DNA of 60,194 bases from Blastocatellia bacterium (GCA_043719385.1 JAYSTY010000438.1:1-60194), one strand, 5' to 3'. Shown: positions 319 through 42,702, counted from the first letter of the stretch. Notes: a model not told the origin generated them from the sequence alone. Numbers and translations are program-made.

Positions 319-1770
319 ATGGCACTGGATGCAAAAATAGTCGCTGAATTGCGTACCATCTGTGGAACCGATGGGGTTTTGACAGACGATGCTGATCTGC
401 TGGTTTACGAATTCGATGCCGTCACCACTCATAAAGCAAAACCTTTAGCCGTTGTCTTTCCCCAAAATACTGAACAGGTCTCCAAACTCGTCCGCTTGTT
501 GTGGCAACACGGTATTGCTTATGGGCCGCGTGGCGCGGGCACCGGTTTGAGTTCCGGCGCGATTGCGATTGGGTGTGAAAAAGACCAGGGCGCAGTCATT
601 GTTGAAATGGCGCGGATGAACAAAATCCTCGAAGTTGATTATGCGAATCAACGCGCAATCATTCAACCTGGCGTCGTGAATTTGCGGCTGTCACAGGCCA
701 TCGCTGCCCAGGGGTTTCATTACGCGCCAGACCCTTCGTCGCAGGCCTCCTGCACCATCGGCGGTAACGTAGCGGAAAATTCCGGCGGCCCGCATTGCCT
801 GAAATATGGCATGACCACAAATCATATTCTGGGCGTAGAAGTCGTGTTACCCGACGGCAAAATCGTCACCCTCGGAGCCGATGGAGCAGATTCAATGGGC
901 TTCGATTTATTGGGTATATTTATCGGCAGCGAAGGCACGCTGGGCATTGCCACAAAAGTTACGGTCAGGCTCAGCCGCAATCCGCAAACAGTTGTGACAA
1001 TGCTGGGCGATTTCATGGATGTTAACAATGCGAGCCGTGCCGTGTCCGCCATCATTGCGGCGGGGTTATTGCCTGCGGCGTTGGAGATGATTGACCAGCC
1101 AACGATTCAGGCGGTTGAATCGTCAATTTACAAAGCGGGTTATCCCACGGATGTGGCTGCCTGTCTGATTGTTGAGCTGGACGGATTGCTGGCGGGAATT
1201 GATACGCAGGTGCAAAAGGTCAAAGATATTTGTCTCGAACACGGCGCGCGGGCGGTGCGCGAAGCGCGTGATGAAATTGAGCGCAAAAAATTATGGGCTG
1301 GTCGTAAAGGCGCATTTGGGGCACTTGGTCGCATCAGCCCCGATTTATTTGTGCAGGATGCCGTCGTACCGCGAACGAAGCTCCCCTCTGTGCTGGCCGG
1401 AATTTATGAGATTGCAGCGAAGCATCATTTGCGCCTGTGCAATGTCTTTCATGCGGGTGATGGTAATTTGCATCCGAGCATAAATTTCGATGGTCGAAAT
1501 ACTGAAGAAGTCGAGCGTGTTCATGCGGCAGGGAAAGAAATTATGAAGCTCTGTGTTGATGCTGGAGGGACAATTACCGGTGAACATGGAGTCGGGATAG
1601 ATAAGATCGGCTATATGTCGATGATTTTCGATCAGGCCTCCCTTGATGCTATGCTGGTGGTCAAAGAAGTCTTCAATCCAACCGGGCTATGCAATCCGGG
1701 CAAAGCGATCCCCGCGCAAAAAATGTGCCGTGAGCATCGTAAAGTGCAAACCAATCGTTCGGTGGGATAA
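319..1770 (+). CDS. glcD: FAD-linked oxidase, glycolate oxidase subunit GlcD family
   Basis: 483 aa. Has an FAD-binding PCMH-type N-terminus (PRGAGTGLSSGA) and PDPSSQASCTIGGNVAENSGGPHCLKYG, which closely resembles GlcD/D-lactate dehydrogenase signatures. Confidence 0.8.
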   Translation: MALDAKIVAELRTICGTDGVLTDDADLLVYEFDAVTTHKAKPLAVVFPQNTEQVSKLVRLLWQHGIAYGPRGAGTGLSSGAIAIGCEKDQGAVIVEMARMNKILEVDYANQRAIIQPGVVNLRLSQAIAAQGFHYAPDPSSQASCTIGGNVAENSGGPHCLKYGMTTNHILGVEVVLPDGKIVTLGADGADSMGFDLLGIFIGSEGTLGIATKVTVRLSRNPQTVVTMLGDFMDVNNASRAVSAIIAAGLLPAALEMIDQPTIQAVESSIYKAGYPTDVAACLIVELDGLLAGIDTQVQKVKDICLEHGARAVREARDEIERKKLWAGRKGAFGALGRISPDLFVQDAVVPRTKLPSVLAGIYEIAAKHHLRLCNVFHAGDGNLHPSINFDGRNTEEVERVHAAGKEIMKLCVDAGGTITGEHGVGIDKIGYMSMIFDQASLDAMLVVKEVFNPTGLCNPGKAIPAQKMCREHRKVQTNRSVG

Positions 1771-1797
1771 CCAAATTGAGGGTAATCAGGCTTAATG

Positions 1798-1841
1798 AAA
1801 ATGGCGTCGCTTTTTTGTTTGAGCGACGCCATTTTTTATTT
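1798..1841. terminator. bidirectional intrinsic terminator between convergent glcD and HU genes
   Basis: 13-bp perfect stem aaaatggcgtcgc / gcgacgccatttt (1798-1810 and 1823-1835). An A-run lies on one side and a T-run (ttatttt) on the other. Confidence 0.7.
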
Positions 1842-1859
1842 TCGAGCCGACCGATAGTA

Positions 1860-2162
1860 CTACTTTTTGGGTGGTACAACGGCCTCTTTCGCGGCTTTGG
1901 CGACGCGGAATTTAACCACAGTCTTGGCCGGAATTTTGATTGCTGCGCCGGTCGCCGGATTACGACCAGTTCGGGCTTTGCGTGAAGCCTTCACCAGTTT
2001 ACCGATGCCAGGCACAGTGAACTGACCGACCTTCTTGGTTTGCGTGACCGCAACTAAGGCGATTTCGTCCAGGATCGCTCCCGCGACTTTCTTTGAAACA
2101 CCAAACTTTTCTGCGAAATGTGTAGCGAGTTGACCTTTAGTCATTGGTTTTGCTGCTGCCAT
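1860..2162 (-). CDS. HU family DNA-binding protein
   Basis: 100 aa. MTKGQLATHFAEK...FTVPGIGKLVKASRKARTGRNPATGAAIKIPAKTVVKFR matches the HU/IHF fold signature (RNPxTG arm). An AAGGAG SD lies upstream. Confidence 0.9.
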   Translation of the reverse strand: MAAAKPMTKGQLATHFAEKFGVSKKVAGAILDEIALVAVTQTKKVGQFTVPGIGKLVKASRKARTGRNPATGAAIKIPAKTVVKFRVAKAAKEAVVPPKK

Positions 2163-2921
2163 AATAGTCTCCTTTGTTTTGAGTGATCTTGCTGCAACCT
2201 CTTCGCACAGATTTTGCTCATTTAAGCTGAGTAAAAATTGTCAAAAAGGCCACTGTCATGGGGAAAGGAACCAGGTAGTTCCTGTTACATTCTCACAGTC
2301 ATATCGGCCTGAATTACCGGCAGGTAAAAGCCACCTGCCATAAACCGTTGCCACCTTCAGGTACTGATCCTGCTTTGGTATCTTTGCCAGAAAAATTGCG
2401 CGGCAAAAACATCAATACGGCGGGGGAACCCTGACTGTGAAATTAAAAGAGCGCGTCCTGATTTTGCTTTAATTCCAAACTGACTTTTTTTCAGCCCGAA
2501 TAAGCAATTTCGATAAAACGACTGTATGTTGTGCTAAAACGCGGCGGAGTATACAGCAGCTTGTAGTTGAGCGCAAGCCCAATATGGCCTGTTTTATTGA
2601 GCAATTTTAATCATTATCAACGTTTGACTGCGCCAGCATTGGCTTTCATGCAATAACGATTCGCGCAGGCCTTATGCCAAAGAAAATTATGAGTCAGCAA
2701 TCCCGCTCCAGAGGCAATAAAATTTACAGCAAAACTGCTTTTCAAATGCAAATACAGATTGCCAAACAGCGCGGGAATAGTTTAGATTTCCGCCGCGATG
2801 ATTTAAGCATCGCTGCATTTGAAATTATCACACGAAGAAATTCAGGCAATGATGATGGGCTGTTGCTCACCAGATATTGCCTGTTAATAAATAATTTTAT
2901 TTCCTTAGGAGGAATTTTATT

Positions 2922-3110
2922 GTGCCATTAGCTGCCTGCCCTGAATGTGACGCCGACATTCATGTTGAAGAAGATACCGATAAAGGCGATGTTGTCCGCT
3001 GTCTTGAATGTGAAATAAAACTGGAAGTGGTCGGCCTTGATCCGATTGAATTAGACCTGGCTTCAGATGATGACGATGATGATTACGACGATGACGATGA
3101 CGATTATTGA
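2922..3110 (+). CDS. LysW-type zinc-ribbon protein with polyacidic tail
   Basis: 62 aa with a GTG start 8 nt after GGAGGA. CPEC...19 aa...CLEC followed by LEVVGLDPIEL resembles the LysW/ArgW carrier protein. The C-terminus is DDDDDDYDDDDDDY. Confidence 0.6.
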   Translation: MPLAACPECDADIHVEEDTDKGDVVRCLECEIKLEVVGLDPIELDLASDDDDDDYDDDDDDY

Positions 3111-3119
3111 GCTGGCTGA

Positions 3120-4148
3120 TTATTTATCAGGAGCAATAAAAGTCGTGCGATTGGTGCGCAATTTGAAGGCTGAATTGATGGCTTCAATCTGGACATTATG
3201 CTGTTTGCCGTCGCGCATTTCAGGATAATACGCCAGGCCATAGCTGGCTCTGATCTCCTCAGCCAGGGCTTTAAAAACCGGCGAGAAATCTCTGGCGTTG
3301 GCGGCAAAATCACGCCCGCCGGTGGCAGCTACAATCCGCGCCGCATCAAGTGGTGTAATGACGCGTTCGGTATTGTGACTAGCGGTCAGCATATAGGACG
3401 GCAGGGTGATGGAATAAACGGTCACGGCGGCGGCGTTGGCGCGCCTGATTAGCTCCCGCGTGTCAATCAGGCTGGATGAGTCAAAGCCATCGGTAATGAC
3501 AATCACGACGCGGCGCAGCGGTTTATTATTTTTGGAGAGCCGCGCCCGCCGACTCAGCATGGTGACAGCTTTATCAAGGGCGTCATAAATTCGTGTGGAG
3601 CCGCCAAAGTTATCCATTTTGGTGAAAGCCCGCTCAATTTTTTTCGCATCTGCGGTGAAATCCTGAAAGACTTTGACTTCAAAGTTGAAAGCCAGGGCCG
3701 CAAAAAATGACTCACCTTTCATCAACTCAGTAAATTTAAGTGCCGCCGCTCGCAGGGTCGCAATTTCATCGGGTTTAAGACTACCGGAAAGATCAAGCGC
3801 AAAAACCAGCGAGAGCGGGCGCGAGGAGGTTGTCTCGTCCGTCACGGTGAAAAAATCTATCTTGCGTGGCTGCCCATCAATCAGCAGGCGAAAATCTTCC
3901 GGCTTCAGATTGCGAACATAATTACCTGCTTTATCCGTCGCGGTGACCTCAACTGTCACCAAATCCGTATCAATTCTGAGAACATCTTTATCGGTGGGCT
4001 GTTTTTTCTCCTGTGCTGGCAACGAAGACGAAATAATTGTCATCATGAACCAGGCAAGTAAAAAGCCCGCAACAAGAGATTTTCTGGCAAGCAATAAAGT
4101 CATCAGCAACAACCTTTGAGAGAATAAACAGATGTTCATCAATCGCAT
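3120..4148 (-). CDS. VWA domain-containing secreted protein (TIGR03436 acidobacterial VWFA-related type)
   Basis: 342 aa with a hydrophobic N-terminus. Has the MIDAS-like motif VFALDLSGS and VIVITDGFDSSS. The true start may be an internal Met (MTLLLARK...). Confidence 0.75.
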   Translation of the reverse strand: MRLMNICLFSQRLLLMTLLLARKSLVAGFLLAWFMMTIISSSLPAQEKKQPTDKDVLRIDTDLVTVEVTATDKAGNYVRNLKPEDFRLLIDGQPRKIDFFTVTDETTSSRPLSLVFALDLSGSLKPDEIATLRAAALKFTELMKGESFFAALAFNFEVKVFQDFTADAKKIERAFTKMDNFGGSTRIYDALDKAVTMLSRRARLSKNNKPLRRVVIVITDGFDSSSLIDTRELIRRANAAAVTVYSITLPSYMLTASHNTERVITPLDAARIVAATGGRDFAANARDFSPVFKALAEEIRASYGLAYYPEMRDGKQHNVQIEAINSAFKLRTNRTTFIAPDK

Positions 4149-4232
4149 TTACCCGCCGCTTGCTGTAAGAAGATTGATGCGCGATTATAGATTTTTACAG
4201 CCCCGGCTGCCAGTCCATTTTTCCAGGGAGTT

Positions 4233-4877
4233 ATGATGCGAAATATTTTACGCGGATTCATAGGTTTTAGTTGCAGCCTCGCGCTGTGCGCAGTGGCCTT
4301 TGCCGATAGCGCTAAAATCCAGGGCAGGGTCAAAGAAGAAAATGGCAAGGCGCTTAACGGCGTCACAGTTAAAGCTACCAGATCTGTTACCCGCACCCTC
4401 GACAATCCTAACAAAGACGACAAATCATACGATACAAAAACGGATGACAAAGGGGATTTTGTGCTGGAGGGATTGGCGGCTGGCAGCTATGTCATAACTT
4501 TTGAATTAACGCGCTATAAAACTTTCATCACTCGTCGCTTTGAAATTCAACCTGGGGAGTCCTTCAAAATACCGCGTGTCATTGAGATGCGACGTGAAGA
4601 GGAACCGACCAGCAAAATTCGCGGCTCCGTACTCGACAGTACCGGATATTCTTTGCCCAATGTGCGGATCACCCTTGAACGAATTGATGGGAAGAAATTT
4701 AAAAAAGTGGAAAAATATTCGGTAGACGGCGGAGAATTCGGATTCAGCGTTCCTTCTGAAAAAGGGAATTATCGCGTTACAGCTTCGGCTGATGGCTTTG
4801 TGACCGCCTCTAAAGAAGTTGAAATCGGTAATGAAGAAATAAGAAATGTGGTGTTACAGCTTGAGAAGAAGCCTTAA
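4233..4877 (+). CDS. carboxypeptidase-regulatory-like domain protein, secreted
   Basis: 214 aa with signal peptide ...CAVAFADS. Contains two IxGxVxDxxGxxLxxVxV-type beta-sandwich repeats (KIQGRVKEENGKALNGVTV, KIRGSVLDSTGYSLPNVRI). Confidence 0.7.
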   Translation: MMRNILRGFIGFSCSLALCAVAFADSAKIQGRVKEENGKALNGVTVKATRSVTRTLDNPNKDDKSYDTKTDDKGDFVLEGLAAGSYVITFELTRYKTFITRRFEIQPGESFKIPRVIEMRREEEPTSKIRGSVLDSTGYSLPNVRITLERIDGKKFKKVEKYSVDGGEFGFSVPSEKGNYRVTASADGFVTASKEVEIGNEEIRNVVLQLEKKP

Positions 4878-4890
4878 AAATTTGAGCGAC

Positions 4891-4941
4891 AGAATGCAAA
4901 AGGTCGGAACGTGAAATTACAGTTCCGACCTTTTGCATTCT
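4891..4941. terminator. bidirectional terminator hairpin between convergent genes
   Basis: Perfect 20-bp stem agaatgcaaaaggtcggaac / gttccgaccttttgcattct with an 11-nt loop. Confidence 0.75.
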
Positions 4942-4954
4942 GGCTTTGAGTTTT

Positions 4955-6286
4955 TTACTGATTCATTGAGTTAAGGAAATCACCATTCGATTTGGATTTT
5001 TCGAGGCGATCAAGAACCAGTTCCATCTGCTCTACACTTGAGAGCGGATTCAGAACGCGCCGCAACACCCAAATGCGGTCGAGGTCTTTTTTCGGAATCA
5101 GCAATTCTTCTTTGCGAGTGCCTGATTTCTGCAAATCAATTGCCGGGAAAACACGCTTGTCAGAAAGCTTGCGGTCAAGATGGATTTCCATGTTGCCCGT
5201 ACCCTTGAATTCTTCAAAGATCACGTCATCCATGCGGCTGCCGGTTTCAACGAGAGCAGTGGCGATAATAGTGAGTGAGCCGCCCTCTTCGATATTGCGC
5301 GCCGCGCCAAAGAAGCGCTTGGGACGCTGTAAAGCGTTGGAATCCACACCACCGGATAGAATCTTGCCCGAAGGTGGAACGACGGCGTTGTGAGCGCGTG
5401 CCAGACGCGTAATAGAATCCAGCAGAATCACTACATCGCGGCCATGCTCAACCAGGCGTTTGGCTTTTTCAATCACCATATCAGCAACCTGGACGTGCCG
5501 CGAAGCTGGTTCATCAAAGGTCGAAGAAATCACTTCACCATTGACCGAACGCTGCATATCGGTGACTTCTTCCGGGCGCTCATCAATCAACAACACAATC
5601 AAAGTCACTTCGGGGTGATTTTCAGTGATGGAATTGGCAATCGTCTGAAGCAAAACTGTTTTACCTGTCCGTGGTGGCGCGACGATTAATCCGCGCTGCC
5701 CCTTACCAATCGGCGTGACGAGGTCAATCACGCGTCCCGATAAATTGTCGGGATTGGTGGTTTCCATCTTCAACTGCTCGTTCGGATAAAGCGGCGTCAG
5801 GTTATCAAAGAAAACTTTATCCCGCGCCAAATCAGGCGTTTCAAAGTTAATCGCCTCAACCTTGATCAGCGCAAAATAACGCTCGCCTTCTTTCGGCGGA
5901 CGGATTTGCCCGGAGATTGTGTCACCGGTGCGCAAATCGAATTTACGAATTTGTGAAGGGCTAACGTAAATATCGTCAGGGCCGGGCAAATAGTTATATT
6001 CCGGGGCGCGCAAAAATCCGAAGCCATCGGGCAGGGTTTCCAGTACGCCTTCGGAAAAAATCAAGCCTGACTTTTCGGTTTGCGCCTGTAGGATTTTGAA
6101 GATCAATTCCTGCTTACGCATTCCGGTTGCGCCGGGAACTTCGAGTTCCTTGGCAATCCCGGTCAGTTTTGAAATGCTCATCTCTTTGAGTTCCGAAATG
6201 TCGAGGAGATTGGTATCCAAAACTTCCTCTTCTTCTTCGTAGTACTCGACTTCACGTTCACGTGATTTTGCTGATTTTTCTGCCAT
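4955..6286 (-). CDS. rho: transcription termination factor Rho
   Basis: 443 aa. Has the Rho N-terminal domain ([21 protein letters not shown]), the RNA-binding OB region, Walker A (PPRTGKT) and the conserved C-terminus. Confidence 0.95.
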
Positions 6287-6630
6287 AAGTTTAATTTTAT
6301 TGCCGCTCGGGGTACCTCAGCCTGAGGCGCGGGAGCCGCGTCATTGGTTAATATTGGGTCAAGCTAAAATGGGAATTATCAAATTTTCTCTTCGTGTGCA
6401 TCCGTTGCACAACTTCTGCGCTATTAATTAATCCGCGTGGTTCGGGAATAAGTTGACTGGCTCAGTGAGCACGAACATTCATCTTGGAGGTTGATTACCG
6501 CTTGAGAATTTATCGTTAGCCGCAGGACAATTTAAGCCGATAAACTAACGATGTGAATTGGGATTGATAGAGAGTAAAAATACCGCTCTCGCGTGAAGCA
6601 GACCATCCTGTGGGAGAAATTCAGCGCTGC

Positions 6631-7263
<633 letters not shown>

Positions 7264-7367
7264 GTTAAAAAAAGGGGAGAAACTAAGCTGGGAGAAGACT
7301 TAGGCAGGAAATATTATAAAGCTCAGCAACAAAAAAATTTGGGGACTGAGCGTTGTTCTCATAATCG

Positions 7368-7793
7368 CTAAAACTCGCTCACATTATGAAATGAGTCACG
7401 ACTGATGGATTCACAAGCATGAATGCACCGCTCGCATATCTGCGAATGACTACTCGCCATTAGATACTCGCCTTTCACTCGCTCAGCGCCACAAAAACTG
7501 CAACAAATCGTCCCGTTTGGAGCGCCACGAAACAGGCGCATATACCAGGGCGAACGGTACCAGCTCGGCGTATAGCCTATCGCCTTATAATCCGATAAAA
7601 GGTCTGAACATACCAGAATACATTCATTACAAATATATCGGCTGCGGCCTTCAAAGAGCCGCAGCACCTGACCTTCGCCTAAACCACAAAACGAGCACCG
7701 CGTTCCGTGCATTTCAAGCTGATAATTCACGGATTTAATTAGTGCGGTACTCGTCAGGTTAAGTTCTAATGTGTTACTTGCCATCATCACCAC
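7368..7793 (-). CDS. stand-alone protein with two ClpX-type C4 zinc-finger domains
   Basis: 141 aa. CSFCGLGEGQVLRLFEGRSRYICNECILVC and CSFCGAERVKGEYLMASSHSQICERCIHAC both fit the ClpX N-terminal ZBD pattern CSFCG-x18/19-IC-x-x-C. No AAA+ module is present. Confidence 0.7.
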   Translation of the reverse strand: MVMMASNTLELNLTSTALIKSVNYQLEMHGTRCSFCGLGEGQVLRLFEGRSRYICNECILVCSDLLSDYKAIGYTPSWYRSPWYMRLFRGAPNGTICCSFCGAERVKGEYLMASSHSQICERCIHACESISRDSFHNVSEF

Positions 7794-7815
7794 CTTGCTT
7801 GAATATGAGTGAGTT

Positions 7816-8415
7816 TTATTCGCGCTTCCTGATTACGGCATCAACCAGGCCGTATTCCTGGGCCTGGCTCGCGCTCATAATGTAATCGCGCTCGACATCC
7901 CTTTCGATATTTTCAATTGGTTGTCCGGCATGATGAGCCAGAATTTCGTTCAGCCTTTGCCGCATTCTGAGAATTTCTTCAGCAGCGATTTTAATGTCAG
8001 TTGCCTGACCACCAATTCCTCCGGCTGAAGGCTGGTGAATCAAAATACGTGCGTTTGGTAAAGCATAACGCTTACCTTTCGTCCCCGCCGCCAGCAATAC
8101 TGCCGCCATTGAGGCGCACTGCCCAACGCACAACGTTGAAATCGGGGCGCGGACAAATTGCATTGTATCGTAAATTGCCATGCCCGAAGTCACTGAGCCG
8201 CCCGGCGAATTGATATACATCTGAATTTCCCGATCAGGGTCTTCAGATTCAAGGAACAACAACTGCGCGACCACCAGATTGGCCAGCGTGTCGTCAATCG
8301 GAGTACCGATAAAAATAATATTTTCTTTGAGCAAACGAGAATAAATGTCGAAGGCGCGTTCACCACGTGGCGTTTGCTCAACCACCATAGGAACTAAATG
8401 AGCGGATGGATTCAT
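7816..8415 (-). CDS. clpP: ATP-dependent Clp protease proteolytic subunit ClpP
   Basis: 199 aa. [27 protein letters not shown] and GQCASMAA (active-site Ser) are canonical ClpP signatures. Confidence 0.95.
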
Positions 8416-8442
8416 AACTTCTAAAAACCTTTACTGCTTAAT

Positions 8443-8465
8443 AAAGCAAGTTTTTCACTTGCTTT
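8443..8465 (-). terminator. hairpin in the tig-clpP spacer (possible attenuator)
   Basis: Perfect 9-bp stem aaagcaagt / acttgcttt with a 5-nt loop. On the minus strand it is followed by a U-rich AUUAAG. It lies 28 nt upstream of the clpP start. Confidence 0.3.
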
Positions 8466-8595
8466 CCCCTGTTACCAGCAACGCAAGTTTGACAACTTAC
8501 GAAATGAATAAAGTAAGGCGGCACGAGGTATTAGCTCGGAGCCGCCTTGATACCTTTTAAACGCGAGGAGCAACAACTCTATCTTTCGGGGCCAG

Positions 8596-10005
8596 CTAAG
8601 CGCTCTCACCTGCTCCATCAATCTTATCATCACCACTATTCTGAGTGCTTACCTCATCAGCAGGCTGCTCCGTCGCCGGAATATCGTCAAATTCTTCAAC
8701 CGTAACTTCTGACTTACTGATTAGTAAATCAATTACTTTCTCAGAACGTAACCGATTTTCGATACTAGACAGGCTGTCATCCTTTGTCAAGCGGGCTTCT
8801 ACCTCCTCTGGCGACTGCCCCACCGACTCGGCAATTCGTTCGATTTCCTGATCTAAATCCTCGCGCGTGACTTCAACTTTTTCGGCCTCGGAAATTGAAC
8901 CAAGAAGCAGGGCAATGCGCACATCACTTTCTGCTCGTTGCCGTTCCTCCGTCTGACGCTCGGCCCAATTAATATTTTGGGCGGCTTGGGGTGAAACGCC
9001 GCTCCGCATCAGGCGCTGCACAAATTCCTGTAAACGGGTATTGGCTTGTCGCTCAACCAACGGTTCCGGCAAAGTGAAATCGTATTCTTTCGCAATGGCT
9101 TCTAATAAATCATCGCGTAAACCGATCTCTGCATCCTGCTCCGCACGCTCCTGCAAATTTTCACGGATACGCTCTCGCATGGCGGCTAACGTTTGATATT
9201 CCTCTTTGTACTCTTCGGCGATTTCCTGAGCGAAATCATCATCAAGTTCAGGCAATTCTTTGAACTTTACTGAATTAATAGTCGCCGTAAATTCCAGCGT
9301 TTTTCCAGCCAGTCCCTGCGAGGGAAAATCTGCCGGATAGACGACCGTAAAATTCTTCACCTCGCCTTCCTTTAGGCCCGATAAATGCTCATTAAAATCA
9401 GTCTGCACTCCTTCACCACCAAGTTCAATCACCAGGTCTTCGGTCGTGAGGTCTTCTTCCTCAACGGGGGCAATAAATTTGCCGACCAGATTCACGGAAA
9501 CAAAATCGCCTGTTTGCGAAGGGCGATCTTCAACCGGGACAAGCTGTGCGGCTCTATCGCGTAAATCAGCCATGACGATCTCAACGCTTTCATCCTTAAT
9601 GCGAGCCACGCGCTTGGTTAGCTTCAAACCTGAATAATTTTTCAACTCATAATCAGGGACAACCGTTACCCGTGCAGTGAACTTAAGTGTGGCCCCTTCA
9701 ACTAACACTATTTCATCGGGATTCACTTCTGGTGAGCCGATGACTCGGAGCTTTTGCTCTTCCATCGCATGCCCAAGCGCATGAGGTACTAATTGATTAA
9801 TGACCTCGCCTTTAATGTCTTTGGCAAAGCGTTGCTTGACCACAGCTTTTGGCACTTTGCCCTGCCGAAAGCCCGGTACTTTGGCATGGCGAGCATACGT
9901 TTCATACGCTTTATCGTATTCCGTCTGAACATCATCAACGCCGATTTCAAGGGTAAGCTCTTTCAGGCAATCGGTTAAATTGGCAACCGCAACTTGTAAA
10001 TTCAA
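8596..10005 (-). CDS. tig: trigger factor
   Basis: Has GFRQGKVP and the overall TF architecture. I trimmed the listed ORF to the in-frame TTG at 10005, 6 nt after GAGGAAG, because the longer ORF runs into the tRNA gene. Confidence 0.9.
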   Translation of the reverse strand: MNLQVAVANLTDCLKELTLEIGVDDVQTEYDKAYETYARHAKVPGFRQGKVPKAVVKQRFAKDIKGEVINQLVPHALGHAMEEQKLRVIGSPEVNPDEIVLVEGATLKFTARVTVVPDYELKNYSGLKLTKRVARIKDESVEIVMADLRDRAAQLVPVEDRPSQTGDFVSVNLVGKFIAPVEEEDLTTEDLVIELGGEGVQTDFNEHLSGLKEGEVKNFTVVYPADFPSQGLAGKTLEFTATINSVKFKELPELDDDFAQEIAEEYKEEYQTLAAMRERIRENLQERAEQDAEIGLRDDLLEAIAKEYDFTLPEPLVERQANTRLQEFVQRLMRSGVSPQAAQNINWAERQTEERQRAESDVRIALLLGSISEAEKVEVTREDLDQEIERIAESVGQSPEEVEARLTKDDSLSSIENRLRSEKVIDLLISKSEVTVEEFDDIPATEQPADEVSTQNSGDDKIDGAGESA

Positions 10006-10056
10006 AACAATCTTCCTCGCTATAAATGTGATTTGAGACCAGGCGATATGAACTAA

Positions 10057-10141
<85 letters not shown>

Positions 10142-10264
10142 AAGCTCAAACGCGAAGGCTAACAAATTTCTGAAATAGTCGCAACTGTAGCCAAAGCACC
10201 AGGGCAATGCTAGAATGCAATTTATCTGTCGTAACAATAAATTTTCCGTCGAGCCAGAGATTGA

Positions 10265-10717
10265 GTGATGGAGCAAGAAAAGGAAATTTTTTTCGAGCAT
10301 CTTAAAAAGGAAGGTTTTAAAAAAACCTCCCAGCGCGAAAAAATATTAGAGGTTTTCCTCAAAACCGAGGGACATTCCAGTGCTGAAGATTTATATGCGC
10401 TGATTAAAGCTGAAGACCCTTCAGTTGGATTCACCACCGTTTATCGCACCCTTAAGCTTCTAACGGAATGTGGACTGGCTCGTCAGGAACGCTTTGCCGA
10501 CGGTTATACGCGCTACGAACATAGCTATAATCACCAGCACCACGATCATCTGATTTGCACCCAGTGCGGCGAACTGATTGAATTTTATAGTGAGATTATT
10601 GAAAACAAGCAGGACGAGATTGCGCGCAAATTCAAATTTCAACCCACGCATCACAGCCTCCGAATTTTCGGCATCTGCAATCAGTGTCAAACCAGTCATC
10701 AAGCGGTCGCCAGCTAA
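10265..10717 (+). CDS. fur: Fur family transcriptional regulator
   Basis: 150 aa. Winged-helix N-terminus, the [11 protein letters not shown]-x-IEF metal-site motif and a C-terminal CxxC. Confidence 0.85.
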
Positions 10718-10730
10718 TCCCAAATATTGC

Positions 10731-11192
10731 ATGCTAACCATGACGCAACGATTCGTATTTTTGTCTCTGACCTTACTTTTATTTTTGCTTGGCGCCTGCT
10801 CCGGTAAACCCGAATCCAATGCAACAGAGGCTTTGGCCTCCGCCAGCAGCACACCTGCCAATGCTAATTCCACCGCGCCTGACAGTGGGCCGAATTCAGT
10901 CGAACTGGCTCCCGTGATGCCGGAGAAAGTTCAGGTTGCGTTTGAACGTTCGTGCAAATCATGTCACGGACCGGAAGGCCAGGGCATTACCAATCTCGCC
11001 CCGGATTTACGCCGCGCTCCGCGTCGCGGACTGGCCAATTGGGTTAAATATTTGAAAGATGAAAAAGGCGCTCACGCCAGCGCTAAAATTCCAGCGATGG
11101 CCTCGCTCACAGATGAGGATTACGAAGCGATTGGCGCTTATCTGGCGGACCTTACGCAAAATAATGCACTCGCCCCAAATGCTCCCAAATAA
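10731..11192 (+). CDS. c-type cytochrome lipoprotein
   Basis: Start set at the ATG at 10731, since the listed ORF start overlaps fur. Has signal/lipobox LLLGAC and heme motif CKSCH. Confidence 0.7.
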   Translation: MLTMTQRFVFLSLTLLLFLLGACSGKPESNATEALASASSTPANANSTAPDSGPNSVELAPVMPEKVQVAFERSCKSCHGPEGQGITNLAPDLRRAPRRGLANWVKYLKDEKGAHASAKIPAMASLTDEDYEAIGAYLADLTQNNALAPNAPK

Positions 11193-37640: not shown

Positions 37641-38711
37641 GTGATTAACCTGGATAAATTGAAAGCAAAAAAATTTATGCGACTCCCCCGACAATTCGCC
37701 GCCACCGGATTAGCGTTTGTACTGCTCAGTTGCGCCTTAGCCTTTGGGCAGGAAACATTTTCAAAAAAAGATTTTGAGATTACCGAAGGGCATTTTCACG
37801 ATGGCCTGGGAACATACACAGAACTTGTTTTAGCAAATGCTTTGATTGCGCAGCAAAAACTGACGCAGCCGCCTTTTGATGTCACGCGCAGCCGCAATAA
37901 AATGCAGGCCGCGATTGATTCCCTGCCCGCAGAGCATCCGAGCCGAACAATTTTCCCCACGGAAATCGCCAACATCGAAAAAGCCGCTCCCGTCGGAGCC
38001 GCTGAAATTCTGAGCCAAGCGAGGGGAAATTTAATTCACGTGCGCCATACAGCGCTGGAATTTGCCGACGCACACGCAGGTGATTTGCGACTGGAATTTT
38101 CTGATCGTGCGCCGCTGCCGATTTCCGTCAAAACTGACAAATCCAATTGGGTTGCCGTCGCCGAAGGTCAGACGCCCGACATCGCGCACAAATGGGCAGA
38201 GCGATATTTTCGTGTCTCCGAACAGGAAATGAATGCCATGCTGAAAGAATCAGGCTTTGCCTCACTTGCCGAAGCGAAAGCGGATTACCTGAACATTGCC
38301 GCCTTAGTAGCGCAAATTTTAATTTCCAAACTGGAACTGAAAAATTGTGAACCTACCGATTTCAAATCTGCCCAGGTCGGAAATATTGAGGCGGCAAAAT
38401 ATTTATTGCGCCAGCTTCGCCACTACAAACACGGCAACGACAACAGCCGCGTGATTATTTTTGATCGTAAAACCGGCGGCGTGAAATGGGATTCGTTGCT
38501 GGACGCGATTGAGCTTGAGACTTTGACTGCCGAGCAAATTTCCTTTTTGCCTGCTCACCCTCGCAAAGGTCATCGCATCGCTTCAGAGTTCGGAATCAAG
38601 ATTGACGGGCAAACGATTGTGTCATTTCAAATCAAACACAAACGCGGGAAAGCACGCGGGACGGAACGTCAAAATGAATTCAGTGATATAACTACGCGGC
38701 TGAGAATTTAG
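37641..38711 (+). CDS. hypothetical secreted protein
   Basis: 356-aa ORF. The likely start is the ATG at 37677 (MRLPRQFAATGLAFVLLSCALAFG-QE, a Sec-type signal). No family recognised. G+C is host-like. Confidence 0.55.
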   Translation: MINLDKLKAKKFMRLPRQFAATGLAFVLLSCALAFGQETFSKKDFEITEGHFHDGLGTYTELVLANALIAQQKLTQPPFDVTRSRNKMQAAIDSLPAEHPSRTIFPTEIANIEKAAPVGAAEILSQARGNLIHVRHTALEFADAHAGDLRLEFSDRAPLPISVKTDKSNWVAVAEGQTPDIAHKWAERYFRVSEQEMNAMLKESGFASLAEAKADYLNIAALVAQILISKLELKNCEPTDFKSAQVGNIEAAKYLLRQLRHYKHGNDNSRVIIFDRKTGGVKWDSLLDAIELETLTAEQISFLPAHPRKGHRIASEFGIKIDGQTIVSFQIKHKRGKARGTERQNEFSDITTRLRI

Positions 38712-38962
38712 CCTCAGTAGAGCCAAATTTAGTTTTCTTCGCGGCTCTGCCGCCCGGATGTGCGGAAAGGCTGTGCCTTTCCGACAGCGACTCCCTCTCC
38801 AGGGCTACGCCCACTACTGACCGTGATGACTTAAATCGCTGGCAATAAGGCTTTGCACAGTGACAAAACGGGCGCAGCCCTTACCCGTTTGACCTACTGG
38901 AAGGGCGCAGCCCTTCCGCACATCAGGCGGCAGAGCCGCAAATTTGGAACTACTGAGCCTGT
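38710..38962. repeat. ~250-bp imperfect palindrome at the islet boundary
   Basis: The left arm (38710 to about 38785) matches the reverse complement of the right arm (about 38899 to 38962), apart from a 10-nt insertion (agttttcttc) and a few mismatches. Each arm contains its own 8-bp/3-nt-loop hairpin. Confidence 0.8.
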
Positions 38963-38981
38963 AAATAAAAGAGGAAATCAA

Positions 38982-39215
38982 ATGTCTGACAAAAAACCAA
39001 CCATTACAACGCATATAGCACGGATGGCAATGAACAACGACTCCGAAATACGAACGTGGGTTGAGCAATGGCTCAAAAATCGTGAGCGCGAAAAATACCT
39101 GGCAACTGGAGCAAGTGAAGATACATTCGATAACCATTGGCTCTACGTGAAACCTGAGACGATGCACGAAGGCGCGGTCGAAGCATATACAGCTTATGTG
39201 GAGCAATTGAATTAA
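38982..39215 (+). CDS. small hypothetical protein (77 aa)
   Basis: ATG at 38982, 6 nt after AGAGGA. No recognisable domain. Convergent with the PIN gene. Confidence 0.45.
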   Translation: MSDKKPTITTHIARMAMNNDSEIRTWVEQWLKNREREKYLATGASEDTFDNHWLYVKPETMHEGAVEAYTAYVEQLN

Positions 39216-39359
39216 GAGTAGTGTTTGTAGCGTTATTTACGAGTTGATTTTGGTATATTGTCGCAACGCGACTGAGAGTTTAAAATTGAGAGCAAAACAG
39301 TACTTGAGTGTAAGCGAGTGTACGCCCAGAAAGATTAACAATTCAGGGTAACTAATAAC

Positions 39360-40172
39360 CTACGGAGACTCAACTGATTTCCCTAAAGCTTTGGCGAGAT
39401 CGTTATGATCTATTATATTTGTTGTTAATATAACTGAATCATCAGGTGCAAAATAAACAATGATAGCGTCGCCCAAATCTCGACACATTTGTTCAGTAAT
39501 TTGTAATTTGGGTTTACGTAGTAGGTCTGTAAGAATTTGACCTCTTTTTTGGTTTTCTCTTTTTGAGGGCTGATCCTTTACTGCATCACATAACAATTTT
39601 AATTTAGCTGGATCACTTCTTAATTTATCTGCAAGGCAACATTCAGTCTTCACTTTGCATTTTAACTGCCTTAAATCAATAAGGCCTCTGTTCTCTACCA
39701 AGTCAACCTCCTCATAACAATCTAAGTCTTGCACAACAAGTGTTGTCAGTTTTCTTCTTTTTTTCCAAGCTTTATATACTAAACTTTTGATGGCTAAGCG
39801 ATAACAATCTGTTGTGATTGATCCTAGGTTTGCACTATCTCCATAAGTATTTATCAACTTACTCATCGGAGTTCGGCTTGTAGCGTTTACAACCTCTATT
39901 ATTGATTCAATTGCTGTTGAAGTTCGATATCTACGCGGAGATCGAGAAACACCATGTAAAACTTTTAATGCCTTTTCAAACGAACCTAACAAAACTAATT
40001 TATCATGAAACCAAGCAAAGGTTTGTAATGGCCCAGCCTTAAATTCTTTGATAGCGTATACAGGCAATTGCGTCTCGCTGTACTTTTTAAGGAGTGCTTT
40101 AGTCGGCTGATTTGAGCTTGGCTTTAATAACGCATTAGTAAGAATTGTTGTGTCAACAAAAGCTTTAGTCAT
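39360..40172 (-). CDS. PIN-domain nuclease with large Cys-rich insertion
   Basis: 270 aa. N-terminal AFVDTTIL (PIN motif 1 Asp), IKEFK (Glu), and a C-terminal DLGDAIIVY...VILTTNIIDHND that resembles the D-A-L-I / T-x-N-x-x-D-F PIN endings. Its start overlaps the upstream stop (ATGACTAA). Confidence 0.65.
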   Translation of the reverse strand: MTKAFVDTTILTNALLKPSSNQPTKALLKKYSETQLPVYAIKEFKAGPLQTFAWFHDKLVLLGSFEKALKVLHGVSRSPRRYRTSTAIESIIEVVNATSRTPMSKLINTYGDSANLGSITTDCYRLAIKSLVYKAWKKRRKLTTLVVQDLDCYEEVDLVENRGLIDLRQLKCKVKTECCLADKLRSDPAKLKLLCDAVKDQPSKRENQKRGQILTDLLRKPKLQITEQMCRDLGDAIIVYFAPDDSVILTTNIIDHNDLAKALGKSVESP

Positions 40173-40776
40173 TTGTTAGGCTTAATAAATCATCTGCAAG
40201 GAAATCAAGGCCTGTAGGCAGAATATTTAAATCTACATCTTCTAGAATATCTGTTATATCAATTGCCCGCTCAAAGTTAATAAACGGTTCTTGGTGAAGG
40301 CTAAAAAAAACTCTATTTATAGCAATCACCTGATTTTCTGCAAGCGGTATACCCTGTGTATTTTGAAGAGCATGCATCACAGATGCGACAATATGCCCAA
40401 ATCCATCTCCAATACTACGGCAGCAAAAAAGCTCGGATAGCAAAGCCTGCACCTTTTGAATCTCATTATCAGCTAAAATTAACTCTTTATAGCTATGATA
40501 TTTAATTGATTGATCTATATGCACTCGCGCTTCTCGCATTAGTCGTAGTGCTGTGCTGAAAAAAGGATTTAGTGTTTGCCAATCGGGATATAGGTCTTCC
40601 GTAGTTATTGAAGCTTCCGTCTCTTGGCTCTTTTCTGGGTTTTTGACGATGTATAGTTTACTGCGCATCGTACTTCCCGTACTGACCTCTTCACTGTCCT
40701 GACGATTTGTATTTAAGCGACTATAATCTACTCCTGTATCATCAGATCTAGGCACTGGCATTATTGCGGCTGGCAT
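40165..40776 (-). CDS. hypothetical acidic protein (middle gene of PIN operon)
   Basis: 203 aa with no recognisable motif. The start shares TAATG with the upstream stop and lies 6 nt after a GGAGG inside the upstream gene. Confidence 0.55.
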   Translation of the reverse strand: MPAAIMPVPRSDDTGVDYSRLNTNRQDSEEVSTGSTMRSKLYIVKNPEKSQETEASITTEDLYPDWQTLNPFFSTALRLMREARVHIDQSIKYHSYKELILADNEIQKVQALLSELFCCRSIGDGFGHIVASVMHALQNTQGIPLAENQVIAINRVFFSLHQEPFINFERAIDITDILEDVDLNILPTGLDFLADDLLSLTND

Positions 40777-41519
40777 TATTTACCTCCTAAAATTTTATTT
40801 ACCCCTCGTTTGATGATTTGATCGGCTTGATTAAGCCAAATAGGGATATTTAATTGACCAACAGAAATAGCCACCTTTGTATAATAATCTACGTCAATTA
40901 CTATTCCTGTTTCTTCAATTTCTTGCCGTGTAAAAACTTGGGAACCTGGAGCATCCAATATATGATGTATCCCTTCAACCTTCATTCTTAGCGTAGTGCC
41001 AATTTTTTTATTTTCCCATCGCATGGCAACCTCAGGGAGTACAGGTAATTCTTCGATGCCAAAGTTGGAGGAAGAAGGAACATTAATTAAGTTAGTTGCA
41101 AAAAAAGAAGCACTTGCCTGATCTTGATTCTTATATTGCTTAAAATATTGTTGTCTATGGCCTAGCCGAGTGAAGCTGGATACTTCAAGATATTTAATAA
41201 CAATTTGAAAGAAATCTTTAATAATTTCAGCATAGGCATTCTCTCCCGATTTTGATGGCTGTAGATCAATCACACCAGATTTATCGATTGATGTAAATAT
41301 TGAATACCGGTTATTGAGAATAAATTGAGTATGCGCAGGGTCTATTTTTGCTGATTCTAACTCCGGCCATTTACGCGAAAACTCACTCCAGATCGCGCCA
41401 GATTTATCCCAATGCAGAAGTGAAAATGGATGCCGAGCCTCCAATATAGATTGGTTGCAACGAAACTCAGAAATTAAGCCAAGCGGCTTTGCTGATGATA
41501 ATTCATCTTCCTTTGCCAT
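40776..41519 (-). CDS. TIGR04255-like protein (sporadically distributed family)
   Basis: 247 aa. The size and the opening KPLGLISEFRC resemble the P-[IL]-x-E-[AV]-x-x-E-[IL]-R-F start of TIGR04255 proteins. This is from memory and needs HMM confirmation. Confidence 0.45.
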   Translation of the reverse strand: MAKEDELSSAKPLGLISEFRCNQSILEARHPFSLLHWDKSGAIWSEFSRKWPELESAKIDPAHTQFILNNRYSIFTSIDKSGVIDLQPSKSGENAYAEIIKDFFQIVIKYLEVSSFTRLGHRQQYFKQYKNQDQASASFFATNLINVPSSSNFGIEELPVLPEVAMRWENKKIGTTLRMKVEGIHHILDAPGSQVFTRQEIEETGIVIDVDYYTKVAISVGQLNIPIWLNQADQIIKRGVNKILGGK

Positions 41520-41598
41520 AGTAAATACCTAATAAGTGCTGATAAATCACACGCTCGAAGGAACTTAATTATGATTAAGCGATAGGGCCAAGTGATGG

Positions 41599-41627
41599 TT
41601 TATATACTAACGCCAGTGAAATAGCAA
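41599..41627 (-). promoter_or_regulatory. sigma70-like promoter candidate for the three-gene PIN operon
   Basis: On the minus strand, TTGCTA (41627-41622), a 17-nt spacer, then TATAAA (41604-41599). It lies about 80 nt upstream of the ATG at 41519. Confidence 0.3.
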
Positions 41628-41652
41628 TTTCTGTATTAAGCGGAGTGGTGAA

Positions 41653-42702
41653 CTATGTGCATACTTTTACATAATGCACACACTCAATCGTTGCATCTTT
41701 TTTGTATTCGCGTCCGTTGTCGGCTTTGAAACGATTGTAATTTGTCTGAAAAAATTTTGGCTTGCCGCGCAATTTTAATAGCTGCTGAATTTCTTTCATC
41801 GGTATCACACCTTCACCGTTGTAACTCACGAAAATATGTTTTGCCTTCGCATGGCGAATTAAATTTTCCATTGCATTGTACGCGGCGTCTTTACGGCAAT
41901 AATCGCTTTTCGGATATTCACGCAGACCTGTCACACCTTTTAATGCGGGGTTATCGTAAGCTGCGATGGTTTCCAGCACGTGATAGTTTGCGCCGTATTG
42001 ACGGTGGTTGTAAGGCGGATCAAGGTACAACACATCACACTCAATTTTTTCAATCAGTTCACTAGCATCCTCATTCCACACACGACAACCCCGCACGCGA
42101 TTCGTTAATTCCAGGGGTTTTAATCGTAGCGGTTTTAATGCGCTCGCCTTAAATTTTTTCAGGTATGCACCGTATACGCTGGCAGTGTTGGCGACCTTGT
42201 CTATGGCTTCGAGCAACGAACACAGGACGTAAAAATATTCCTGCTCCGTCAACAATTTCTGCTTGCGCCATGCTTCAATTTTTTGGCGAATCGCGTCCGC
42301 CTTCTCAGCATTTTCTGTCGTGTAATATTGCCTGTCACCAACCGGAGAATAATTTTCTGTGATGAATCCTGTTATTCCTGGCAACGCATTGATAAAGGCT
42401 AAAACTTCCTGAGCGGGAGTGTCGGGCAATGTCGGATACGCAGCAATTTCTTTTTTAAATTCGCGCCGCAAGCCTGCAAAATCAGGCGTTTCGTTGATTT
42501 CCAGATAGGCCTTGTTCAGCGCGTAAGCGTAATACTGCAAATCGTTGGCGATGACTGTAAATCCCAGGCCTTTGAAATGTCTGCCAACTGCGCCTGTGCC
42601 GGCAAAAATATCGCAGAAAGTTTTTTCAGTTCCATCAGTAACTTTACGAAAAACGTGTTCGAGAAAAGGGAGTAGTGTCAGCTTCGATCCGATGTAGTTC
42701 AT
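41653..42702 (-). CDS. site-specific DNA adenine (N6) methyltransferase, alpha/D12 class
   Basis: 349 aa. MNYIGSK (D12-class opening), DIFAGTGAVG (motif I) and LYLDPPY (motif IV), in alpha-class order. Confidence 0.85.
   Translation of the reverse strand: MNYIGSKLTLLPFLEHVFRKVTDGTEKTFCDIFAGTGAVGRHFKGLGFTVIANDLQYYAYALNKAYLEINETPDFAGLRREFKKEIAAYPTLPDTPAQEVLAFINALPGITGFITENYSPVGDRQYYTTENAEKADAIRQKIEAWRKQKLLTEQEYFYVLCSLLEAIDKVANTASVYGAYLKKFKASALKPLRLKPLELTNRVRGCRVWNEDASELIEKIECDVLYLDPPYNHRQYGANYHVLETIAAYDNPALKGVTGLREYPKSDYCRKDAAYNAMENLIRHAKAKHIFVSYNGEGVIPMKEIQQLLKLRGKPKFFQTNYNRFKADNGREYKKDATIECVHYVKVCT

Follow-up and report, generated by a model that had tools for sequence, protein, structure and literature searches.

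Do the four genes that lie side by side on the minus strand of a GC-poor islet (GC, guanine plus cytosine) in a Blastocatellia bacterium form a single conflict system, and if not, which of them belong together and what could they do? The islet spans positions 38,963 to 42,702 of a 60,194-nucleotide stretch (GCA_043719385.1, JAYSTY010000438.1:1-60194), the whole of which is hereafter called the window. In the direction of transcription, it comprises a gene for an N6-adenine DNA methyltransferase followed by three genes denoted here g2, g3 and g4. An initial interpretation made from the nucleotide sequence without database searches (the sequence-only reading) had proposed that all four belong to one novel system. 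Comparison with other genomes and with closely related contigs assigns only g2, g3 and g4 to a conserved, horizontally mobile and previously undescribed cassette, next to which the methyltransferase gene is a resident neighbor.

A conserved three-gene cassette

The first gene of the cassette, g2 (40776-41519), encodes a protein of 247 amino acids (aa) with a tandem TBP-like/AdoMetDC-like fold, predicted to serve as the partner that binds nucleic acids or a ligand; g3 (40165-40776) encodes an acidic protein of 203 aa (isoelectric point, pI, 4.6), the predicted inhibitor or antitoxin; and g4 (39360-40172) encodes a basic (pI 9.4) PIN-like nuclease of 270 aa, the predicted effector or toxin. All these genes, as well as that of the 349-aa methyltransferase (41653-42702), are found on the minus strand where the sequence-only reading had placed them, and the features it had cited as evidence of translational coupling are present. 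The g2/g3 junction reads GGAGGTAAATAATGCC (GGAGGTAAATAATG), with a TAATG overlap and an embedded Shine-Dalgarno sequence, GGAGG, 7 nt upstream, whereas the g3/g4 junction reads AAATGACTAAAG (AATGACTAA), the stop of g3 lying over the start of g4 in an 8-nt overlap, ATGACTAA. In agreement with the claim that the islet is compositionally foreign, the GC content drops to 0.35-0.40 over approximately 39250-41750, compared with about 0.50 in the flanks; that of the methyltransferase gene (~0.45) is intermediate between the cassette and the flanks.

Comparison of the profiles of the three families with six-frame open reading frames (ORFs) detected g2, g3 and g4 in this order, usually overlapping, in approximately 22 of the 26 species-representative genome loci. 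All three genes were also present in 50 of the 53 informative metagenome loci, namely those with at least 1.4 kb of sequence available upstream. The same arrangement of three genes is found at more than 70 independent loci, far beyond what would be expected by chance, so that the homologues do co-occur in other genomes and the proposal that these genes constitute a coupled unit is borne out. The g3 gene is located directly upstream of g4 in nearly all loci, and the two ORFs overlap by 4-20 nt in most of them. Gene lengths vary little: in the gene calls for loci L001, L003, L005, L044 and L045, the products of g2, g3 and g4 are 239-288, 187-214 and 274-279 aa long, respectively. The cassettes at P0006 (248, 214 and 279 aa), P0042 (240, 193 and 275 aa), P0114 (239, 187 and 274 aa), P0086 (240, 190 and 279 aa) and P0120 (288, 188 and 279 aa) are each surrounded by unrelated genes. 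The upstream proteins of other cassettes are only distantly similar to those of the window, with 26-31% identity for g2 and 31-38% for g3.

The genomes that carry the cassette, all of them metagenome-assembled, belong to four phyla: the majority are Acidobacteriota, and the rest come from Smithella/Syntrophaceae (Syntrophia), several Alphaproteobacteria and Bacteroidota. This patchy spread, together with the low GC content of the islet and the existence of decayed copies, amounts to a distribution typical of horizontal gene transfer. Split or frameshifted copies were identified at four loci (L022, L029, L030 and L031). Reduced versions also occur: in L009 (5601-6819) and L062, the C-terminal domain of g3 and g4 directly follow a pyruvate dehydrogenase E1-alpha gene, L115 likewise retains the g3 C-terminal domain and g4 in the absence of g2, and in L027 (2427-3338) a solitary g4 follows an M20-like peptidase gene. 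An apparent 551-aa "fusion" protein containing g3 in L009 was rejected as an artefact of naive ORF calling, caused by read-through from the pyruvate dehydrogenase E1-alpha gene.

Direct scans with hidden Markov models (HMMs) yielded no significant match for g2, g3 or g4 in Pfam, NCBIfam, PADLOC-DB 2.0.0 or PHROGs, and in PADLOC-DB 2.0.0 there was no match at E≤1 for any of the three. Searches of PDB sequences with profiles of g2, g3, g4 and g4 from which the insert described below had been deleted produced no meaningful matches either, and no description of the g2-g3-g4 cassette was found in the library of papers that was searched. The impression that no named system fits this set of genes therefore stands.

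The three proteins

Homologues of g4 number several hundred and are uniformly about 270 aa long; in an exhaustive profile search of 1.84 billion proteins, the number of 50%-identity representatives was 659 at E≤1e-3 and 236 at E≤1e-30. Conservation of individual residues was assessed in 127 diverse representatives at 50% identity (128 sequences) and also in a 64-sequence alignment. The common feature of the PIN superfamily, a metal-binding active site made up of three to four conserved acidic residues that follow beta1, begin alpha3 and follow beta3/beta4, is represented here: the position of D7 is occupied by D or E in 126 of 128 sequences, E43 is invariant (128 of 128), and D235 and D255 are retained in 127 and 124 sequences, respectively. 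The T251-N252 motif is conserved as well, N252 being kept in 127 of 128. PIN domains are Rossmann-like alpha/beta/alpha structures built around a parallel central sheet. In an AlphaFold2 model with a predicted local distance difference test (pLDDT) score of 94.3, strands 3-6, 33-37, 145-147, 246-249 and 266-268 could form a five-stranded sheet, and the Foldseek matches to this model are headed by VapC20, PAE0151, mycobacterial and Rickettsia VapCs and a Pyrococcus PIN protein. At both ends of the protein, the spacing of D7/E43 and D235/D255 matches that of D7/E42 and D98/E119 in Shigella VapC, the canonical VapC residues, and this correspondence points to an insert of ~136 aa, predicted to be helical or hairpin-like, between the two halves of the active site.

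When 64 members of the g4 family were compared with Pfam, the top and most frequent families were PIN_3 and PIN, with best E-values of 0.0039 and 0.034, respectively; after deletion of the insert in silico, the same two families remained on top and the best E-values became 2.3e-4 and 0.0061. The window protein itself has no Pfam PIN match. Taken together, these observations suggest that g4, for which a PIN-like nature had been proposed at the outset, belongs, as a divergent member, to the VapC-type PIN proteins. The cysteines C152, C172, C178 and C230 are nearly invariant, each being kept in at least 126 of 128 sequences, and suggest the presence of a Cys4 metal site, the metal being most likely zinc, with an iron-sulfur (Fe-S) cluster as a possible alternative.

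In the g3 protein, the first ~60 aa are variable, and a conserved domain of ~130 aa (LYP ... ELFCCR-LGDGFG) follows. This layout, in which the C-terminus is the conserved part and the N-terminus the variable one, differs from that of VapB-type antitoxins, where a DNA-binding domain (AbrB, RHH, HTH or Phd) is N-terminal and a tail that binds the toxin is C-terminal. The median pI of the g3 family is 4.59 and that of the g4 family is 9.55, a charge complementarity typical of antitoxin/toxin pairs. The original description of g3 as an acidic protein lacking any recognizable domain remains accurate, given that searches of Pfam, NCBIfam, PADLOC, PHROGs and the PDB all were blank.

For g2, an AlphaFold2 model (pLDDT 86.8) has a secondary structure of the form beta-alpha-beta4-alpha followed by beta-alpha-beta3-alpha. 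The best Foldseek match is AdoMetDC (E-value 3.7e-5), followed by RepDE, YwmB and TBP, which indicates a tandem TBP-like sandwich; no match was found in Pfam. The sequence-only reading had labeled this protein TIGR04255-like, a label that is weakly supported. The window protein does not match TIGR04255 (NCBIfam) at E≤1, let alone above the cut-off of the family; the support comes from 4 of 17 members of the g2 family, which do match the model, all below threshold (best E-value 9.4e-5). Judging from these profile comparisons, g2 is indicated to be a distant relative of TIGR04255 rather than a member. No mention of TIGR04255 was found in the library of papers searched.

A strain-variable slot beside a resident methyltransferase gene

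In the window, the cassette fills a strain-specific segment (39227-41668), the limits of which are defined by blastn breakpoints and by the gene tables of sister contigs. The latter were located through the protein cluster of the 77-aa ORF (38982-39215, plus strand), which marks the other edge of the slot and which, in contigs L046-L058, is found beside different cargo. On the side that includes the genes for ClpA, a 356-aa protein (ORF356; 37641-38711, plus strand) and the 77-aa protein, the window and the sister contigs are 91-94% identical (blastn); in L048, the opposite side, with the methyltransferase, BNR-repeat and GNAT genes, also is about 91% identical to the window. Between these flanks, the segment is specific to the window, and homology with the sister contigs resumes at 41663-41669. 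In L048 and L047, the two contigs in which both flanks are visible, the junctions are located no more than ~15-25 nt from the stop of the 77-aa gene and, at the methyltransferase gene, in its last few codons. These positions imply that the methyltransferase gene is a resident anchor, beside which the cassette is one exchangeable cargo among several.

The alternative cargos are diverse. In L048, the slot holds a gene on the plus strand (2221-3174) that is convergent with the methyltransferase gene and encodes a 317-aa, 60%-identical paralogue of ORF356, and in L047 it holds a minus-strand gene (1874-3196) for a 440-aa DUF3644 (HEPN) protein, beyond which lies a diverged methyltransferase gene. 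The orthologues of the methyltransferase gene in L048 and L047 are 91% and 77% identical to that of the window at the nucleotide level, respectively. In L049, L050, L053, L055, L056 and L058, the 77-aa gene is followed by a 66-aa gene and a TPR gene. Contigs of this type stop short of the methyltransferase position; the longest, L049, extends to two further genes, XisH and XisI (cargo at 5711-8169). DUF3644 is a family of HEPN proteins linked to restriction-modification (R-M) operons (PMC3710099), and HEC-08, a DUF3644/HEPN protein, is a validated defence protein (bioRxiv 10.1101/2024.01.29.577857), so that the gene in L047 lends the slot a defence flavor. The locus is an accessory or defence hotspot that varies between strains and has several interchangeable cargos, among them the cassette.

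The methyltransferase is a genuine enzyme of the D12 class: it matches PF02086 with an E-value of 1.3e-46 (159.9 bits, compared with a gathering cut-off of 22) and the PADLOC model MTase_II with an E-value of 6.8e-107, and the FAGTG and DPPY motifs are visible in the translation. The assignment as an N6-adenine DNA methyltransferase thus holds, whereas the epithet "Dam-like" is valid only in the broad D12 sense, given that the score for the Dam (GATC) subfamily TIGR00571 is 16.2 bits, compared with an NCBIfam cut-off of 114.85. The gene is located 133 nt upstream of g2 on the same strand, not only in the window but also, across several sequencing runs, in no fewer than 11 short contigs, and this identical arrangement is stable in the population in question. 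However, no homologue of a D12 methyltransferase was found within 6-8 kb of any of the approximately 106 other cassettes (26 genome and 80 metagenome loci), and a crude motif scan of these loci revealed no methyltransferase other than the HsdM protein in L043. Accordingly, the four-gene system of the sequence-only reading finds no support as a general unit: the methyltransferase gene is the resident anchor of the hotspot and not a part of the cassette.

The methyltransferase orthologue of L048 (3152-4214) is frameshifted near codon 141 and is called as two pieces of 141 and 218 aa, which reflects genuine pseudogenization or else a mistake in the assembly. More distant relatives (38-40% identity) are encoded on Psychrobacter and Bartonella plasmids (L041 and L042). 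There, two D12 methyltransferases are adjacent, the relative being the second, and a gene for a ~470-aa hypothetical protein comes next; this array looks like a type IIS R-M system, whereas the window has a single methyltransferase. Family scans of the window ORFs detected no recognizable endonuclease adjoining the methyltransferase gene. The candidate is ORF356, which has no match in Pfam, NCBIfam, PADLOC-DB 2.0.0 or PHROGs but contains a GD...x14...SVK stretch, a candidate PD-(D/E)xK motif, and may be a restriction endonuclease. With this candidate, and with its paralogue facing the methyltransferase gene in L048, the statement of the sequence-only reading that a cognate restriction enzyme is missing is uncertain. 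Neither ORF356 nor its 317-aa paralogue shows significant similarity to the ~470-aa proteins encoded next to the plasmid methyltransferases. The 77-aa ORF does exist and converges on g4, as first described, but it is a conserved host gene and not a part of the module; its product has no match in the same four databases. Both the 77-aa and the 356-aa ORFs were rejected as members of the cassette, having no homologues near other cassettes and being kept in sister contigs that lack it.

The upstream end of the strain-specific segment is formed by the 5' non-coding leader of the cassette (41520-41668, minus strand). The leader contains a near-palindrome, CTTAAT-CATA-ATTAAG (41564-41579), 5' of g2 and two occurrences, 61 nt apart, of the motif CGCTTAAT (41574-41581 and 41635-41642), and the palindrome and the repeats could be a candidate operator. 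Scans for promoters and terminators gave counts no higher than the shuffled expectation, with no excess of consensus promoters in the leader, and an Rfam search of the islet returned no matches. Flanking direct repeats, att sites and a nearby tRNA gene or integrase gene were looked for in the window and none were found. Outside the slot, between ORF356 and the 77-aa gene, there is an element of ~240 bp (38715-38955) that resembles a miniature inverted-repeat transposable element, with terminal inverted repeats of ~45 nt (arms at 38738-38782 and 38899-38942). It is present as a single copy in the window, is shared by L046 and L047, and is absent from the sister contigs L048-L058.

Elsewhere, the 138 ORFs flanking 26 cassettes are mostly housekeeping genes (adenosylhomocysteinase, aminoacyl-tRNA synthetases, a resistance-nodulation-division pump and ribonucleotide reductase, among others); only two encode proteins with integrase arm-binding domains, and PADLOC matches are few and scattered. 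Individual cassettes nevertheless are associated with mobile elements or conflict genes. The closest relative of the window cassette (L039, 69% identity) shares its island with genes for an integrase and an HTH_17 excisionase-like protein; in L003, genes for RHH, AlpA and integrase proteins are located downstream of the cassette; in L110, an integrase homologue is encoded on either side, ~4-6 kb away; and in L005, a ParD gene adjoins the cassette. In L043 (IMGVR_UViG_3300044824_000306, 845-11137), g2-g3-g4 are directly preceded by a type I R-M operon (HsdR-HsdM-HsdS) and followed by genes for an HK97-type capsid protein and a prohead protease, and this cassette is the cargo of a prophage or a satellite-like element.

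Possible functions and comparison with known systems

With moderate confidence, we interpret the cassette as a self-contained, mobile three-component PIN-based module of the toxin-antitoxin (TA) or abortive-infection type, which was one of the two possibilities put forward initially, namely a three-component PIN module beside an unrelated methyltransferase, and is the better supported one. Under this scenario, g4 would be the effector, a metal-dependent VapC-like PIN endonuclease for which RNA is the most likely substrate, with the Cys4 (probably zinc) site in the insert predicted to brace or regulate the active site. The g3 protein, which would be made in a fixed proportion by virtue of the 8-nt overlap, is predicted to inhibit the basic g4 stoichiometrically, as its antitoxin. 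For the tandem TBP-like g2, the prediction is a subunit that binds nucleic acids or a ligand and that targets the complex, senses for it or regulates it, a role proposed by analogy with the anti-phage RNase RnlA, the two TBP-like domains of which are needed for substrate binding. Once freed from g3, for example, upon phage infection or loss of the element, g4 would cleave nucleic acids and arrest growth. The analysis itself shows the order, overlap and co-occurrence of the genes, the conservation of residues, the predicted folds and the variability of the hotspot, from which the nuclease activity, the inhibition by g3, the role of g2 and any defence phenotype are inferred. A more specific version, in which the cassette is an undescribed immune system where a TBP-like sensor of a phage nucleic acid or metabolite releases a Zn- or Fe-S-containing PIN nuclease from its acidic inhibitor and so triggers abortive infection, is offered tentatively and seems rather doubtful at present.

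Several observations weigh against a PIN-based conflict module. By sequence, the similarity of g4 to PIN domains is below threshold, so that the E-value of no single family member suffices to establish homology. In the Foldseek search of the PDB, six of the top seven matches are VapC or PIN proteins, but they are weak (E-values of ~0.5-2.4, TM-scores of 0.13-0.24), which can be attributed to the large insert that splits the domain. In 24 members of the g3 family compared with Pfam, and in searches of PDB sequences, no DNA-binding domain and no similarity to antitoxins was detected. A tblastn search with g4 gave no match among PLSDB plasmids and INPHARED phages. Finally, no clear enrichment of defence islands is seen among the 138 flanking ORFs, most of the 26 cassettes being solitary among housekeeping genes.

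The blank results with toxin, antitoxin and defence HMMs and the predominantly housekeeping neighborhood of the cassette, along with the uniform length and strong purifying conservation of g4, would also be compatible with a cellular nucleic-acid-processing complex that has no role in conflicts, or with g4 being an inert PIN-like scaffold. This appears improbable considering that just 659 representatives were retrieved among 1.84 billion proteins, which makes the family a rare one, that it is patchily spread across four phyla, that its presence varies between contigs that are 91-94% identical, that pseudogenized copies exist, and that the full acidic tetrad of g4 is retained. Somewhat less easily dismissed, although still unlikely, is a purely selfish addiction module (acting through post-segregational killing) or a genomic stabilizer without a role in phage defence. 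The solitary three-gene insertions between housekeeping genes, outside defence islands, that account for most of the copies, the common decayed copies and the acidic/basic pair encoded by overlapping genes, a classic type II TA architecture, all fit this possibility. A conserved third component, however, is unusual for a simple addiction module, the alternative cargo of the slot in the window includes a DUF3644/HEPN gene from the domain family of a validated defence protein, and one copy (L043) is sandwiched between a type I R-M operon and phage structural genes. Addiction and defence are, in any case, compatible and not mutually exclusive roles.

The remaining possibility, also raised by the sequence-only reading, is an R-M-like, methylation-discriminating system in which self DNA would be marked by the methyltransferase and unmethylated DNA of invaders would be cut by the PIN complex. 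The conserved proximity of the two in the window and at least 11 contigs of the same population, as well as the location of the L043 cassette directly downstream of a type I R-M operon, could be cited in its favor, and the slot beside the methyltransferase gene is filled with other nuclease-type genes (DUF3644/HEPN and the 317-aa gene), as if these were exchangeable effectors. The same exchange of cargo beside a retained methyltransferase, however, makes a general mechanism of this kind unlikely, and the lack of D12 methyltransferases near the other cassettes, where only the L043 HsdM was found, points in the same direction. Moreover, the GC content of the methyltransferase gene (0.45) differs from that of the cassette (0.35-0.40), and the recombination junction is located exactly at the 3' end of the methyltransferase gene, which implies that the two were joined secondarily. 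The plasmid relatives of the methyltransferase are found in arrays of two methyltransferases and a ~470-aa gene, and PIN enzymes of the VapC type are typically ribonucleases (RNases). On balance, a restriction-like system of this type is highly improbable.

If the interpretation as a PIN-based TA or abortive-infection module is correct, the cassette would represent a new three-component architecture of toxin-antitoxin or defence systems and would provide the first functional handle on the g3 family and on the g2 family with its distant link to TIGR04255; should the sensor version hold, this would be the first functional context for the TIGR04255 superfamily. Two mechanistic features would be novel, namely a VapC-type nuclease whose insert bears a Cys4 site and an RNase-type effector whose partner is a tandem TBP-like protein encoded separately. 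The sources of the cassette are uncultured bacteria of soils and sediments, for the most part Acidobacteriota, and such bacteria are poorly covered by defence catalogues compiled from cultured Proteobacteria and Firmicutes. Independently of function, the locus illustrates clearly, in a natural setting, how the content of a hotspot with a methyltransferase gene as its anchor differs between strains.

Among the known systems, VapBC modules share the most features with the cassette: the acidic tetrad of g4 with VapC-like spacing at both ends, VapCs as the top structural matches, the gene for an acidic protein directly upstream of and overlapping that of the basic nuclease, and the mobile, sporadic distribution. 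The differences are substantial as well, in that g4 is twice the usual size of the toxin because of the ~136-aa insert with the Cys4 site, g3 has no AbrB, RHH, HTH or Phd-type domain and no similarity to VapB, there is a conserved third gene, and the Pfam PIN models are matched only below threshold. Tripartite toxin-antitoxin systems include omega-epsilon-zeta, PaaR-PaaA-ParE and the toxin-antitoxin-chaperone system HigBA-SecB. Like the cassette, they are three-gene operons, with the third protein regulating or assisting the toxin-antitoxin pair, but their folds are unrelated to those of the cassette proteins.

In the RnlAB/LsoAB anti-phage systems, an RNase-type effector goes together with a pair of TBP-like domains and has a protein inhibitor of its own. 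In RnlA, the two TBP-like domains precede a HEPN RNase, and TBP1 is needed to bind the substrate and for activity (PMC8266594). The resemblance is one of analogy only, given that the effector of the cassette is a PIN-like rather than a HEPN protein (the HEPN RNase domain being marked by an Rx4-6H motif), that its TBP-like module is a separate polypeptide, that no sequence similarity was detected, and that RnlA is outside the top 50 Foldseek matches of g2. A comparable combination is found in HEC-07, a validated defence protein in which an AdoMetDC-like domain, the type of structure to which g2 is best matched, is joined to a RelE RNase; HEC-07 and HEC-08 are defence genes embedded in Hma systems (bioRxiv 10.1101/2024.01.29.577857). 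HEC-08 is of the DUF3644/HEPN type, as is the gene that fills the slot in L047. Both, however, are single-protein systems with RelE or HEPN effectors, and the comparison with the cassette is by description. Proteins of the TIGR04255 family are similar to g2 in length and are likewise sporadically distributed, but the connection consists of the sub-threshold matches of the 4 g2 relatives, the window protein having no match at E≤1, and the family itself is uncharacterized (NCBIfam).

Overall, the cassette is most like a VapBC-type module supplemented with a third component, from which it departs in the type of antitoxin, the architecture of the toxin and the failure to reach HMM thresholds. For this putative PIN-nuclease conflict module, which is absent from PADLOC-DB 2.0.0, there is a fair possibility that it constitutes a truly new defence system with three components.

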